Shown in pieces: positions 1 through 30,147 of a stretch of 64,000 nucleotides of DNA. This stretch comes from Syntrophorhabdaceae bacterium (lineage in GTDB: Bacteria > Desulfobacterota > Syntrophorhabdia > Syntrophorhabdales > Syntrophorhabdaceae), in the NCBI GenBank assembly GCA_963666485.2, contig CAXXUO010000003.1, positions 320,001 to 384,000 on the forward strand. Reading direction: 5' to 3'. The translations under genes were made by a program, and so were the position numbers. Within the stretch, counting starts at the first letter, position 1, and each line of letters begins with the position of its first letter. Under the pieces are notes generated by a model that saw only the letters and a program-made list of their open reading frames with translations, made no database searches and was not told the origin of the DNA.

Positions 1-536
1 GACCCCACAAAGCGCCCGGCTGGCGTAGTGCGCTCCTCGCGGCGTATGGCCGAGAGATGGCGGTCGCCGATACCGGGAGAGGAATGGTCTCCCCTGGCAA
101 GGCCGAGCAGTGCAGGGGCGGACCCCAAGATCCTGCCGTCGGGATCGAAGACAAAAACCTTTGCATCTATCTTGTCGACAATGACAAAGGGCATTCCCTC
201 ATTGTCGGCCGAATCCACGATCCAATCGGCGACTTTCCCGGCCGCTTTAGATCTTTCGGCGTTCTTGAAATCAGCCCGTCCAGAAGACGATGTTAAGGCA
301 GTTAATGACTGGCCGTACTGTATTGCCCGGTTGGCGGCGATCTCATGGAACGGGACGGATCTTCCGGTCTCGGCGAGCGGTCTTACAGACTGACCTGACA
401 CCGGTTGGGCAGGAAGGCCAAGGGCTGCAACCCCAATAAATACCGCTCCGATGACCGGCCCGGCACGTAGCCGGGTGGGGTGCAGACTACTGTGCCCTGT
501 ATTTCCCGGATAGCAGCCGCGCAGGAATACTGTCAT
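1..536 (-). CDS. L,D-transpeptidase-like exported protein (partial; 3' end runs off the window)
   Basis: Not in the ORF track. Manual translation from ATG at 536 gives MTVF...IGAVFIGVAALGLP...PFVIVDKIDAKVFVFDPDGRILGSAPALLGLARGD...IRREERTTPAGRF, a YkuD-type N-terminal pattern. The catalytic His/Cys would lie outside the window, and the start is uncertain. Confidence 0.65.
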   Translation of the reverse strand, partial: MTVFLRGCYPGNTGHSSLHPTRLRAGPVIGAVFIGVAALGLPAQPVSGQSVRPLAETGRSVPFHEIAANRAIQYGQSLTALTSSSGRADFKNAERSKAAGKVADWIVDSADNEGMPFVIVDKIDAKVFVFDPDGRILGSAPALLGLARGDHSSPGIGDRHLSAIRREERTTPAGRFVG

Positions 537-563
537 GTCTCGGTCTGTATCATAGGATGCATA

Positions 564-600
564 ATTTCGCCCCGCTTGTTTATAAAAAGCGGGGCGAAAT
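564..600 (-). terminator. Hairpin (terminator or mRNA stabiliser) between the small lipoprotein gene and the LDT-like gene
   Basis: Perfect 14-bp inverted repeat ATTTCGCCCCGCTT / AAGCGGGGCGAAAT. Confidence 0.7.
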
Positions 601-608
601 AAGATCGA

Positions 609-812
609 CTAGTGACGGTCGGGTTTGGCCGGCGGCGGCGGTGGAGGAGGAGTCGGCGCAGGCGGCGGTTCCGGAGCAGGCTGTACCACGGGTGCCGGAG
701 CAGGAGGAGGGGGAGTCTCACCCTTCATTCTCTGCTGGAAACATCCGCAGCCGCCCAGGATCGTGCCAACGAACAAAATCAGTAAAGCGATCCCTAATAA
801 CCTTTTCTTCAT
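609..812 (-). CDS. Small proline-rich lipoprotein (67 aa)
   Basis: MKKRLLGIALLILFVGTILGG-C lipobox, then a polyproline tract ending AKPDRH. RBS AAGGAAGG precedes ATG 812. Confidence 0.85.
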   Translation of the reverse strand: MKKRLLGIALLILFVGTILGGCGCFQQRMKGETPPPPAPAPVVQPAPEPPPAPTPPPPPPPAKPDRH

Positions 813-2747: not shown

Positions 2748-5700
2748 GTGATTAAGGCAGGTCCTATGCTGTCGGCAGCGGCGGGATCGCCGGTGGATAT
2801 CAACGGTAACGGGGGACTTCTGTACACAAAAAGATCCGGCGCGGGAACGATCTGTACAGTATTATTTCTGTTCTGTGCACTTGTGTTGCCGTCAACAGGT
2901 TCCGGCGAGGCCTTTGCTCCCAATGACCCCTACTTTTCGTACGGTGCGGGCAGTTACTGGTATCCCGGCGAATGGCATCTCGAGAATGCCGGAACGGTAG
3001 TGTCAGGGAAGACGAATAACGGTGTCGATGCAGGCCTGAGGGGGGCCTGGAACCTCGGGTATACAGGCAAGGGGGTCACCATCGGCATTATCGACGACGG
3101 GGTCGAGGGAACGCACGAGGACCTGAAGGCCAATTACAGCGCAGCTTTAAGCCGCAAATTCCTGGGGGGCAGTATACTGGGCCCGACCGGCCCCATATAT
3201 CAGGCAGATAATCATGGGACATCCGTTGCGGGCGTGGCCGCTGCCCGTGGAGGCAACGGCATAGGGGGAACGGGCGCCGCCCCTTATGCAACTATTGCCG
3301 ACCTGCGCCTTCTCGATGACACCGTTGTCACCCAGGATTACATAAATGCTTACCTGTGGGCGAGCGGCGTGGAATTAAAGGATGGCAAATATGTCATAAC
3401 GAGCGACGCCCAGATACAGGTCAAAAACCACAGCTACGGGAAAAAATATCCCTGGACCCGGGATGACGCGAACATCGCAAAGGTGATGAACAGGAGTGCG
3501 CAGAACGGCGTCATACACGTATGGGCCGCCGGCAACGAGCGCGGGAAGATGGATGAAGACTCAAGCAAGAACCAGACCCATGCGAACAGCAATATCATCA
3601 CAGTTGCCGCGCTGGGGAGTGATGGTAAATATGCGTCTTACAGCAATTACAGCTCCAGTGTCTTTGTAACGGCACCCTCAAACGGGAGCGGCACCCTCGG
3701 TATAATCACGACCGACAGGAGCGGGGCAAACCTCGGGTATAACCGGTATTCAGCCCAGAACCTGAGCGGGGACAACGGTGATGTATTTCCCGATACCAGT
3801 TATTGCAGCGACTTCGGCGGCACCTCTTCGGCGACCCCGCTCGTGGCGGGGATAATGGCGCTCGGGAAGGAGGCGAACAAGTACATGGATGTCCGCATGG
3901 CACAGCACGCCCTGGTCCTCACGTCGACGAAGGTCGACCCCAATGATGCAAGCGCTGCGGGCGGGTGGATAATGAACGGCGCGGGCAACTGGTTCAACCC
4001 CAATTATGGCTTTGGTAAGATCAATGCGGGCAAGTTTGTCGAAAAGGTGGCAGCGATCAAGGGCGTCAGCGCACAGACGTCGTATTCAACCCCGCTTCAG
4101 ACAGTAAACGAGACGATCAAGTATCTTGACGCCGGCAATGCCGGGGGTACGACCAAACAGATCACTCTGACAACGGCGCAGTTGCCGGCGGCGCTGCGGC
4201 AGCCCCTTGAAGGCGTCCAGGTGTACCTGAACTTTACGCACGCAAAGCGGGGGGACCTGACGGCTTATGTCACGTCCCCATACGGAACGACGAGCCGCCT
4301 CTTTAACTCCACTGCGCATCTGCCTGCGGCACAGCAGGATGATACGAGTGTCACCGATTTCGGTTGGACGTTTCTTTCGAACGCCTTTTGGGGGGAAGAC
4401 CCCCTTGGAGGAGCAGACAAAGCATCCGGTAAATGGGTGATCACCATGGGGGACAGGGTCAACAAGGCTGCTGCGGACCTGGGCACCTGGAACAGCTACG
4501 GCCTCACGTTGCTCATGGGAAAAATATTGTTCAATGGGGCCGGGGTGATCACTCAGACGGAGAATATCAAGGCAAGGTCTTTGTCGATGCAGAATTCCGG
4601 CGATATCCTGATCAACCCGAAGGGGTATAGCCTCGAGGTTGGCGAAAAGGTGGAGATCAAAGCCGGCGAGATGAACGTCAACGGGATCGTGAGGATGAAT
4701 CGTCCGGAGGATGATGAAGATGAAGGTGAATTTGTCCTCGACGGCGGCATCGTTTCGGGCGCGGGCACCATTGAGGCACCCTATGGGTTCTACCATGTCT
4801 CGGGTACCATTAAGCCGGGGAATTCCATCGGCACCCTCACGATCGTAGGTGATTACTACCAGGAACGCGCGGCCAAACTTCTCATCGAGGTGGCCTCACC
4901 AACGAGCAACGACGTCCTCGCTGTCGTCGGGAGCGCTTATCTGAACGGTATACTCCAGACCTCCTGGCTGGGAGGACGGGCGACCCCCGCCATAGGGACG
5001 GTCTTCGGGGCTTTCCTTACAGCGACGGACGGGGTGTATGGACAGTTTTCGAGCCTGCTGACGAACATAACCCCGACGGTCGTCTTCAAGCCAAGATACG
5101 ATATACCCAACCAGGTCTATCTCGTCGTCCAGAGGGACTACGCGAACGAGGTTCTGCTTCCCTACCTCAATACGAACCAGCGGGCGGTGGGCGCAATGTT
5201 CAACAGCGTCGGCAACACGGCGACGGGCGATCTCGACACGGTCCTCCGGGCCATCGACGCCCTGCCGGGGTACAGCCAGGTGGCGAATGCACTTGACCAG
5301 GCAGCCCCCCGGGGGAGCGAGGCACTTTTCAGCATGGGCATCAGCTCCACCTCTTTCCAGGCCATGAACATCTCCGATCGCCTCTTCGACATACGGCGCG
5401 GTATCAGGGGTGCGAACCTCGACGGGGTGTTCATGAAGAACAGCTCGTTCGTGCGGGAGGGCAAGGACAGGCCCGTCCTTATCGCCTCGGCCGGTCCCGA
5501 TCTTGCGGGCATGCTTCCAGATCCTGGAAATGAGAGATGGGGCATCTTCGTGAAGGGTAACGCGGTATCCGGCGACCAGAGGGACACGTCCGACCGGACA
5601 GGATATAATTTCACAAGTGCGGGCGCCACCCTGGGCATGGACTACAGGTTTACGGACAGCCTGGCGCTCGGTCTGCTCATCGGGTACACGGGATCGCGCG

Positions 5701-6368
5701 CTGATGTGGACGATTACGGCAGCAAAGTGACTATGGATGGTTATACAGCGGGTATCTACGGGACCTGGTACAGGCACGGGTTCTTTGTGGACGGGCAGGC
5801 AAGCTACGGGTGGGCGGACTACAGGAATAGCCGGCGCATCGTCTTCACAGGTATAGACCGGACGGCGTCGTCGAGGCCATCCGGCCGCCAGCTGACCCTC
5901 TATGGGGGCACGGGTTACGAGTTTAAGACAGATGCCTGGATGCTTGTGCCTTCCGTCTCCCTTCAATACATAAAACTCGGGCTCGACAGCTATACGGAAT
6001 CAGGTGCGGGAGCGCTGAACTTAAACGTGGACAGGCAGAACATGGAATCCTTCCTTGGGAATATCGGTGGAAGGGCATACTACACTTTTGATACGGAAGG
6101 GGCGGTCATCATGCCGGGCATCCGGGCATCCTACGGATATGAATTCCTCCGCGACGCTCGCGGCGTCACGTCGACCCTCGCGCAGGGAAGTTCGCCCTTC
6201 ACCATCGAGTTGCCGTCGGCCGCCAGGAACACCATATCCTGCGGTGCCTCGATCTCCATGTTCCTGAAGAAAAACGGGGCCTCTTTTCAACTGGGATACG
6301 ATGCTCAGTTCGGTTCGGACAACTACACCGCGCACAGCATTAACGGGATGATACGCATGGTTTTCTAA
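2748..6368 (+). CDS. S8 (kexin/furin-like) serine protease autotransporter with P-domain
   Basis: Catalytic motifs IIDDG, DNHGTSVAG, AAGN and GGTSSATP; P-domain (THAKRGDL); PGNSIGTL beta-helix; C-terminal beta-barrel ending in F. Start uncertain. Confidence 0.92.
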   Translation: MIKAGPMLSAAAGSPVDINGNGGLLYTKRSGAGTICTVLFLFCALVLPSTGSGEAFAPNDPYFSYGAGSYWYPGEWHLENAGTVVSGKTNNGVDAGLRGAWNLGYTGKGVTIGIIDDGVEGTHEDLKANYSAALSRKFLGGSILGPTGPIYQADNHGTSVAGVAAARGGNGIGGTGAAPYATIADLRLLDDTVVTQDYINAYLWASGVELKDGKYVITSDAQIQVKNHSYGKKYPWTRDDANIAKVMNRSAQNGVIHVWAAGNERGKMDEDSSKNQTHANSNIITVAALGSDGKYASYSNYSSSVFVTAPSNGSGTLGIITTDRSGANLGYNRYSAQNLSGDNGDVFPDTSYCSDFGGTSSATPLVAGIMALGKEANKYMDVRMAQHALVLTSTKVDPNDASAAGGWIMNGAGNWFNPNYGFGKINAGKFVEKVAAIKGVSAQTSYSTPLQTVNETIKYLDAGNAGGTTKQITLTTAQLPAALRQPLEGVQVYLNFTHAKRGDLTAYVTSPYGTTSRLFNSTAHLPAAQQDDTSVTDFGWTFLSNAFWGEDPLGGADKASGKWVITMGDRVNKAAADLGTWNSYGLTLLMGKILFNGAGVITQTENIKARSLSMQNSGDILINPKGYSLEVGEKVEIKAGEMNVNGIVRMNRPEDDEDEGEFVLDGGIVSGAGTIEAPYGFYHVSGTIKPGNSIGTLTIVGDYYQERAAKLLIEVASPTSNDVLAVVGSAYLNGILQTSWLGGRATPAIGTVFGAFLTATDGVYGQFSSLLTNITPTVVFKPRYDIPNQVYLVVQRDYANEVLLPYLNTNQRAVGAMFNSVGNTATGDLDTVLRAIDALPGYSQVANALDQAAPRGSEALFSMGISSTSFQAMNISDRLFDIRRGIRGANLDGVFMKNSSFVREGKDRPVLIASAGPDLAGMLPDPGNERWGIFVKGNAVSGDQRDTSDRTGYNFTSAGATLGMDYRFTDSLALGLLIGYTGSRADVDDYGSKVTMDGYTAGIYGTWYRHGFFVDGQASYGWADYRNSRRIVFTGIDRTASSRPSGRQLTLYGGTGYEFKTDAWMLVPSVSLQYIKLGLDSYTESGAGALNLNVDRQNMESFLGNIGGRAYYTFDTEGAVIMPGIRASYGYEFLRDARGVTSTLAQGSSPFTIELPSAARNTISCGASISMFLKKNGASFQLGYDAQFGSDNYTAHSINGMIRMVF

Positions 6369-29634: not shown

Positions 29635-30147
29635 TTATTGCATCGGCTGGAAATGGGCCCGCCTGTTCTTTGCCCATGCCTCCTCGGTGTGAGCCGGATC
29701 GAGAGGCCGTTCCTTTCCGTAACTGACCGTGTCGAGCAGTTTGCGATCGACACCGAGATTCACGAGATAGCTCTTCGCAGAATCGGCGCGGCGCTGTCCC
29801 AGGACGAGGTTATACTCGATAGTGCCCCTTTCGTCGCAATGACCCTCGATGCGAACTTTTTTACCGCGATTCTCAGGCGCCTGGAACCATTTCACATCTA
29901 CCTGCAGGATCTGCGCATCCTGCGGCCGGATATTGTACCTGTCGAAATCGAAGTGGATATCGGTCAGTGCAACTGCCTCCGGTGCGACAGCGACGGGTGT
30001 TTTCGCCTCCGGCGCGACCACTGCGGCCGGTGGTGCGGCGGGCGGCGGTGTCTCGCCCTTCATCTGCTGGTAGAAACAGCCGCATCCGCTGAGCGAGAGC
30101 ATTATCGCAAAAAACGCCAACACCATAGAAATATTAGTTCTTTTCAT
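29635..30147 (-). CDS. pal: Peptidoglycan-associated lipoprotein (OmpA-like domain)
   Basis: LSG-C lipobox; HFDFD, IEGHCDERGTIEYNLVLGQRRA, SYGKERP, NRRA. Confidence 0.92.
   Translation of the reverse strand: MKRTNISMVLAFFAIMLSLSGCGCFYQQMKGETPPPAAPPAAVVAPEAKTPVAVAPEAVALTDIHFDFDRYNIRPQDAQILQVDVKWFQAPENRGKKVRIEGHCDERGTIEYNLVLGQRRADSAKSYLVNLGVDRKLLDTVSYGKERPLDPAHTEEAWAKNRRAHFQPMQ

Follow-up and report, generated by a model that had tools for sequence, protein, structure and literature searches.

The window considered here, the whole stretch of 64,000 nucleotides analysed from a Syntrophorhabdaceae bacterium, begins within a two-gene cassette on the minus strand, in which the gene for a small lipoprotein (P0001) is followed, across a hairpin, by the gene for an enzyme (P0002); the features are collected in table 1. 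The lipoprotein gene is preceded by the ribosome-binding site AAGGAAGG, and its product consists of a signal peptide, the lipobox L-G-G-C22, the segment CGCFQQRMKGET, exactly 28 residues of spacer (19 Pro and 4 Ala) and the ending AKPDRH. The initial annotation had proposed a 67-residue lipoprotein with a lipobox, about 28 Pro/Ala-rich residues and this same ending, and the protein it described is real. By the +2 rule, the lipoprotein sorting rule of E. coli, P0001 would be sorted to the outer membrane. On the plus strand, an 86-aa ORF (1217-1477) is divergent from the cassette, and a 1206-aa ORF (2748-6368) resembles, by eye, a subtilisin-family protease with an autotransporter-type C-terminal part.

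Table 1. Features of the cassette and the lipoproteins compared with it; positions are those of the window unless a contig is given.
Feature	Position	Strand	Basis
Gene for the 67-aa tagged mini-lipoprotein P0001	609..812	(-)	Orthologues adjoin the enzyme in 11/11 enzyme-bearing genomes of the family
Lipoprotein signal peptide and lipobox L-G-G-C22, with Gly at +2	747..812	(-)	Sequence
GGCGCFxQxMKGETPPP segment, common to Pal-like OmpA-domain lipoproteins	705..755	(-)	Two such proteins in the same genome
28-residue Pro-rich spacer (19 Pro)	630..713	(-)	Sequence
C-terminal tag K-P-D-R-H-stop, the window copy of [K/R]-x-D-R-N/H	609..626	(-)	Sequence
Hairpin with a perfect 14-bp stem and 9-nt loop, without a U-run	564..600	(-)	Folding z -5.4
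Start of the gene for P0002, the cognate YkuD-fold Cys enzyme, encoding residues 1-178 of 273	1..536	(-)	ORF; fold model
Pal-like lipoprotein with the same N-terminal segment and an OmpA domain instead of the tag (comparison, outside the cassette)	29635..30147	(-)	PF00691 E 3.3e-21
Second Pal-like lipoprotein with a CGC N-terminus	G000:C2:602727-603245	(-)	Shared N-terminus

Polyproline rises by approximately 3.1 Å per residue, at which the 28-residue spacer of P0001 would span approximately 87 Å. The E. coli value quoted for comparison with this span is 85 Å (PMC12729407). A fixed molecular ruler is ruled out because the spacers of P0001 orthologues vary in length, some containing Cys-Pro repeats, and both length and composition differ widely among them. 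In many family members (L178, L183, L186, L206 and L218-L220) the spacer is not polyproline and consists of a Cys-Pro repeat (CPACP-like); such repeats could give rise to disulfide-linked bundles.

The hairpin starts 8 nt past the P0001 stop codon, and none of 200 shuffled sequences folds equally well. The strong hairpin that had been noted 3' of the small gene is confirmed and is also conserved, since strong folding (z <= -2) within 70 nt past the stop is found in 33 of 35 lipoprotein rows (median z -4.3), compared with a median z of -1.1 in the other 121 rows, duplicates being included in both row sets. An intrinsic terminator is ruled out, as the hairpin lacks a U-run and is absent from the terminator scan. 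It is a possible mRNA-stabilising or attenuating element, and its conservation fits a pattern in which more transcript would be made for the small struts than for the enzyme.

The P0002 ORF starts at 536 on the minus strand and leaves the window; in the assembly it is complete (273 aa, G000:C3:320536-319715), with a hydrophobic signal segment at residues 28-42 and with H201 and S-Y-G-C230-I-N both lying to the left of the window. The L,D-transpeptidase (LDT)-like ORF that had been suspected here, and that the ORF track had missed, does exist, and extension of the contig recovers its His/Cys motif, the two catalytic residues being invariant in 182 of 182 non-redundant relatives. The His-to-Ser spacing of P0002 is 25 residues, longer than the 14-17 residues quoted for LDTs (PMC11410929). 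Placement of the enzyme depends on structure: the whole protein has no family match in Pfam or NCBIfam, its trimmed core scores 12.7 bits against a Pfam YkuD cut-off of 23.4 (PF03734 / YkuD_2 PF13645), with weak YkuD matches to the same core in 28 of 51 relatives (best E 2.5e-5), and sequence searches of solved structures returned nothing useful. An AlphaFold2 model built from 51 relatives (pLDDT 88) is matched in a fold search by 18 chains at Z >= 8, all of them YkuD-like, the first row that is not YkuD-like having a Z of 4.4. The L,D-carboxypeptidases Csd6 (Z 12.6, rmsd 2.3, 125 aligned residues) and Pgp2 are among the best matches, tied within 1 Z, and Ldtfm follows closely (Z 12.3, rmsd 2.7, 123 aligned); the top Foldseek matches are likewise all of the LDT fold. 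No sortase model of Pfam matches P0002, no sortase chain stands among the fold matches listed (a listing that does not exclude the family) and the nearest ESM Atlas clusters have no Pfam family in common. P0002 is modelled as a YkuD-fold protein with an intact catalytic pair.

The enzyme family comprises 1262 clusters at 50% identity (E <= 1e-10), and the close relatives of P0002 are labelled Syntrophorhabdus or Syntrophorhabdaceae. The same genome also encodes four canonical YkuD proteins. It holds, in addition, a second copy of the enzyme (G000:C1:1397848-1398675, L162), in which T-L-G-C-I-V replaces S-Y-G-C-I-N, the loop is shortened and the active-site region has diverged; no tagged gene lies near it. 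Some enzyme homologues (L029, L191 and the Syntrophobacter-type loci L021, L023, L024, L028, L031 and L058) themselves appear, by eye, to carry a lipobox, and soluble and lipid-anchored forms of the enzyme may both exist. Distant homologues of 117-153 aa (L188-L190, L243-L245), which were excluded from all counts, keep the His and the GCxN motif and match the phage family phrog_38499, to which no function is assigned; they possibly represent a minimal phage-borne YkuD-like enzyme.

Of 153 non-redundant loci, 131 (99 by the strict motif) have, upstream of the enzyme, a gene that ends in a tag of the [K/R]-x-D-R-N/H type, compared with 2/153 on the opposite strand and 3/132 downstream. These loci pool genome, metagenome, family and random samples, de-duplicated and with at least 500 nt upstream, and most derive from the best 80 of 454 and the best 80 of 580 confirmed matches, a choice biased towards near relatives. 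Of the genome loci, taken as the best 80 of 454, 72 show a [K/R]-x-x-R-N-type end on the ORF upstream (63 by a stricter pattern), and among 79 metagenome loci, many of them short and drawn from the best 80 of 580, a tagged upstream ORF is present in 57. The pairing on which the initial annotation relied is thus conserved, at 131/153 against a null of 2/153. The remaining 22 enzymes, which include the second copy in the P0002 genome, have no upstream tag, and for some enzymes the tagged gene lies downstream or elsewhere instead.

Across 144 non-redundant tags (these, like the 131 loci, include the relaxed-motif match L113, which is probably false and is left out of the Lys-free, tree and co-variation analyses), position -2 is Arg in 142, position -3 is Asp in 118 and position -1 is Asn in 128 and His in nine, Lys never being terminal. 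Position -5 is Lys in 110 and Arg in 34, and the last 10 residues hold no Lys in 24. Of the K-x-DR end that the initial annotation proposed to survey, Asp and Arg are conserved to this extent, whereas Lys is replaced by Arg in almost a quarter of the tags. The motif forms the free C-terminus in all cases, with no transmembrane helix or basic tail beyond it, and only this end of the enzyme's neighbour is conserved, the bodies of the proteins being unrelated. Judged from sequence, such a combination of unrelated bodies, one tag and a neighbouring enzyme is the pattern of a sorting signal with its cognate enzyme.

The tag is found on mini-lipoproteins, Cys-rich lipoproteins, two-partner-secretion (TpsA) exoproteins and Gly-rich or disordered periplasmic proteins; one TPR-like lipoprotein and one helical lipoprotein are further partners. 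A TPS domain is present in 23 of 28 large partners tested, five more TpsA partners occur besides, and in 7/7 loci tested a TpsB gene lies upstream of the TpsA partner. The TpsA partners are 800-1250 aa long, and their C-termini may stay in the periplasm, as those of FHA, HMW1 and CdrA can. The Gly/His/Tyr-rich and Gly_rich_2 partners have ordinary signal peptides, and the Ser/Thr/Gln-rich disordered partners of a divergent clade end in R-x-D-R-N without a Pro tract. Lys is absent from the last 93-759 residues of some TpsA partners and from the entire mature chain of some partners with signal peptides. On a FastTree tree whose support is mostly weak, the class of the partner switches at least 10 times and Lys/Arg at -5 at least 16 times; class labels were assigned by rule and by hand, with 39 tree rows unlabelled or untagged and L113 excluded. 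Locus L112 apparently holds two cassettes within 16 kb: the best enzyme match, on the minus strand, follows a tagged TpsA-like ORF, and another match, on the plus strand, follows a tagged protein rich in Gly.

The full enzyme is encoded in 11 of the 64 genomes of the family sample, all 11 with a tagged neighbour, and a twelfth genome holds fragments of both the enzyme and the tagged gene. Additional, unlinked tagged lipoproteins occur in four of the 11, and a fifth has one approximately 10 kb from a paralogue; the genome of P0001 yielded no further tagged protein among its 68,559 six-frame segments. Ten pattern matches in nine enzyme-free family genomes are all spurious (short, overlapping or not at a stop), an absence that holds for the pattern used, which demanded Lys at -5 together with Pro at -7 and overlooked two genuine tags. 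Among 301 sampled Burkholderiales genomes, 12 carry the full enzyme, and a tagged ORF accompanies it in 11 of them, one such ORF being partly masked (10/11 without the chosen centre genome); among 301 alphaproteobacterial genomes, five carry the enzyme and four of these a tagged neighbour (3/4 without the centre genome). The tag search found none in one enzyme-bearing genome of each of these two groups. A single tag pattern, applied to all 301 Burkholderiales genomes, matched 16 times, and the sole real exported ORF among these adjoins the enzyme. Of 60 pattern matches in five enzyme-free control genomes, none of the 30 inspected is a real exported ORF. Among the genomes searched, tagged proteins occurred in enzyme-bearing ones only. 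In one Burkholderiales genome (G538), four copies of the enzyme occur with three tagged exported proteins, and most of these genes are unlinked (L239, L247, L249, L250, L256, L266, L269). Because few genomes in each sample carry the enzyme (3/17 in the genus of the host, 11/64 in the family), the system is patchy and accessory and not a universal equivalent of Lpp.

A target for the tag is suggested by the proteins that P0001 resembles. Its mature N-terminus is common to two Pal-like lipoproteins of the same genome, one of them inside the window, and 30 of 35 longer homologues of this segment carry the OmpA domain PF00691, which a Pfam scan does not find in P0001. A second Cys past the lipobox is conserved in both the Pal-like lipoproteins and the mini-lipoproteins, and a third, ordinary-looking Pal is encoded on contig C9 besides the two CGC Pal-like lipoproteins. 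P0001 thus reads as the N-terminal part of a Pal-like protein with its peptidoglycan-binding domain swapped for the tail. The betaproteobacterial partner L116 corresponds to the N-terminal part of OmpA, with the tag where the domain would be; 38 of 39 longer homologues carry PF00691, and the ESM Atlas places this partner in hypothetical-protein clusters only. Because the tag is paired with a wall-enzyme fold and has twice, separately, replaced a wall-binding domain, we infer that the outcome of tagging is attachment to peptidoglycan, and some form of covalent attachment, whether with the protein as donor or with Lys as acceptor, is probable. The peptidoglycan tether of the initial annotation gains support from these two replacements and from the conserved pairing; its restriction to one small lipoprotein was too narrow, as the tag is portable and is also found on adhesin-like exoproteins and periplasmic proteins.

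How the enzyme might read the tag was approached by predicting the complex of P0002 with the tail. The prediction scores 0.81, the best of three controls 0.03; this mark is reached by 116 of 157 solved complexes and by 2 of 215 mismatched pairs, counts that are only roughly valid for the alignments used here. At least 92% of contacts recur between runs, and the partner pLDDT is at least 66. As read from 25 listed of approximately 57 contacts, those of lowest predicted error pair Cys230 with three tail residues, Arg(-2), Asp(-3) and His(-1); this Arg is further contacted by residues 227-229, and this Asp by Ala197. The tail Lys is listed only against residues 183 and 197, and the catalytic His201 is listed as touching Asp(-3) and not the leaving residue. 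In the thioester of LdtMt2, the donor iso-Glu contacts Ser331/Gly332 and the acyl mDAP lies at His352-Cys354 (PMC11410929); counted in residues from the catalytic His and Cys, and not by superposition, these sites map to 196/197 and 228-230 of P0002. The predicted pose would thus put Asp in the place of iso-Glu and Arg in that of mDAP, the register of a donor. The model supports binding of the tail rather than showing it, and its score may reflect resemblance to LDT structures already solved with ligands, or to the LDTGo belt of Pro-rich sequence. Co-variation between the His-ending clade and the predicted interface was null (3/10 clade-specific changes fall in the interface, p 0.38), and the choice of Lys or Arg at -5 followed no column of the interface.

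Cleavage after Arg and transfer to mDAP are favoured because the predicted complex puts Asp and Arg in the iso-Glu and mDAP places; the tags, moreover, keep Arg(-2) far more strictly than Lys(-5). Exported proteins would end in a flexible spacer and a free [K/R]-x-D-R-N/H-COOH tag, to be read by a periplasmic YkuD-fold Cys enzyme usually encoded just downstream. The tag would mimic the donor stem peptide, with Asp for iso-Glu2, Arg for mDAP3 and Asn/His for D-Ala4; the enzyme would remove the last residue, bind the protein to Cys230 through a thioester at Arg and then pass it on to peptidoglycan, at an mDAP amine that is still free. As in the sortase reaction, the protein would supply the acyl group, in reverse of the polarity of Lpp. 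At the window locus the product would be an accessory covalent strut from membrane to wall, built on a Pal-like lipoprotein N-terminus, while elsewhere the tag would moor two-partner-secretion exoproteins and periplasmic proteins. We give this sortase-like transfer of the tagged protein onto peptidoglycan a probability of about 0.5. The cleavage site, the polarity and peptidoglycan as acceptor are the inferred parts of this reading. The reactions known for YkuD enzymes, which cleave an L,D bond or a bond of the stem peptide, are among the points against the protein as donor; all protein attachments tabulated in a 2025 review use the amine of the protein (PMC12729407), and an L,L protein donor would lack precedent.

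The same attachments speak for a conventional LDT reaction, in which peptidoglycan would be the acyl donor, Lys(-5) the acceptor and D-R-N/H a docking signal, much as for the internal Lys of Coxiella LimB. Lys stands at -5 in the majority of tags and in all small lipoproteins of the family, S-Y-G-C-I-N resembles the (S/T)HGCZN transpeptidase motif as quoted, and the replacement of OmpA domains is compatible with this chemistry to the same degree. It is nonetheless unlikely, given Arg at -5 in 34/144 tags with at least 16 changes on the tree, partners without a nearby Lys (TpsA proteins and others with none in the mature chain) and a tail Lys absent from the listed contacts of Cys230; Lys chemistry could be limited to the Lys-bearing subset. 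The original proposal that the near-terminal Lys is the acceptor is not borne out, with Lys missing from the last 10 residues of 24/144 tags and D-R-H at Cys230 in the predicted complex. The donor chemistry might also be retained with another acceptor, either the amine of a lipid or of LPS or a Lys on a second tagged chain, which would give cross-linked polymers as with pilin sortases. Lys(-5) or Lys(-4) is common beside the near-invariant Arg and several genomes encode two or three tagged proteins; the Lys-free partners, the OmpA-domain replacement that points to peptidoglycan and the acceptors known for the fold, which in the cited review are mostly mDAP (PMC12729407), make such an acceptor improbable.

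The fold matches would also be compatible with hydrolysis, since Csd6 and Pgp2 rank among the best of them. Csd6 and Pgp2 trim stem peptides, and DpaA detaches Lpp. A tag-specific carboxypeptidase or release factor would trim or detach the tag, and so control retention or turnover, with no new bond formed; the donor-register pose would serve hydrolysis equally, and the mini-lipoprotein and the disordered proteins could be sacrificial substrates. Trimming by one residue, however, leaves the double replacement of a peptidoglycan-binding domain unexplained and gives no reason for a protein made of lipid anchor, spacer and tag alone, and we regard this as an unlikely account. Alternatively, the tail may bind non-covalently, as a ligand or pseudo-substrate, and in this way gate in trans an LDT of the ordinary wall-remodelling kind, for which the Pro-rich belt of LDTGo, blocking the active site (PMC10864386), is a precedent; the conserved hairpin suggests that the small protein is in excess, and enzymes without a tagged neighbour exist. 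An inhibitor need not sit on TpsA proteins of 800-1250 aa and on many unrelated cargoes, and the divergent clade has R-x-D-R-N alone, without a Pro tract, so gating of this kind has little probability.

The system that emerges combines features of several known ones. With E. coli Lpp and LdtA/B/C, and with the Lpp box of Dickeya OutB, it has in common a small lipoprotein, a YkuD-fold Cys/His enzyme, a portable short C-terminal sequence and, probably, a covalent wall tether. In Lpp and OutB the acceptor amine has to come from a C-terminal Lys (PMC12274547; PMC12729407), whereas the present tags close with Asn/His, preceded by an Arg that is almost invariant, and can do without Lys. Unlike the trimeric coiled coil of Lpp, the spacer is Pro-rich or disordered; the enzyme belongs to a separate, unmodelled family and is encoded beside its cargo; and many tagged partners, P0001 with its lipobox not being one of them, are not lipoproteins. 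Other tethers, namely Coxiella LimB (internal Lys21), Legionella Lpg1810 (C-terminal Lys-Thr) and beta-barrels with N-terminal Gly-Gly or Ala-Asp (PMC12729407, PMC12274547), are likewise cases of LDT-mediated covalent attachment of non-Lpp proteins in diderms, and indicate that Lys need not be terminal; all of them supply the amine, and they differ in having no D-R-N end, dedicated neighbouring enzyme family or TpsA cargo. LDTGo, a 1,3-transpeptidase (PDB 8QZG; PMC10864386), is also YkuD-like with altered donor specificity and, in the published account, a Pro-rich segment that enters the active site; P0002 matches it structurally (Z 8.7, 20% identity over 144 aligned residues) without a sequence match, and the belt of LDTGo is N-terminal and in cis. 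With the Pal/OmpA-family lipoproteins (PF00691) the N-terminal segment and the Pro-rich linker are shared, but the non-covalent peptidoglycan-binding domain is gone and the tag is in its place.

Further parallels lie among sorting systems. Sortase A acts on the C-terminal LPXTG tag of many unrelated surface proteins and is a Cys transpeptidase often encoded at the same locus. The proposed protein-acyl thioester handed to a wall amine would resemble its mechanism, in line with the predicted donor register; the modelled YkuD fold, the free C-terminus without transmembrane helix or basic tail and the periplasm of diderms set the present system apart. PEP-CTERM, GlyGly-CTERM and MYXO-CTERM provide, as described, a similar many-to-one pairing of signal and enzyme seen by phylogenetic profile, but have a transmembrane helix in the signal and intramembrane enzymes, neither of which applies to this tag. 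The enzyme has the YkuD fold, the tags lack the terminal Lys that defines the Lpp type, and the pair would act like a sortase without being one. Its wider description, as a diderm sortase equivalent on the L,D-transpeptidase fold, with an L,L-bond protein donor, mooring lipoproteins, periplasmic proteins and the retained ends of TPS exoproteins across Desulfobacterota and Alpha-, Beta- and Gammaproteobacteria, is plausible and put forward tentatively.

No NCBIfam model covers the tail, either among 67 tails (two chance rows at E > 0.5) or among 15 whole tagged proteins, and no description of the tag-enzyme pair was found in a literature search of largely open-access papers. Even if the chemistry is Lys-based or hydrolytic, the pair would still be an undescribed one. 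Protein labelling could make use of a soluble enzyme with a short, free C-terminal tag as its ligation site. If the polarity is indeed reversed, the reaction would be new for the YkuD fold. Only a handful of proteins covalently joined to peptidoglycan are known in Gram-negatives, all of them amine donors in the literature cited (PMC12729407, PMC12274547); a portable tag of five residues, served by an enzyme family of its own, would, if true, extend wall-linked proteins to many cargoes, and would suggest how some two-partner-secretion exoproteins remain on the cell.
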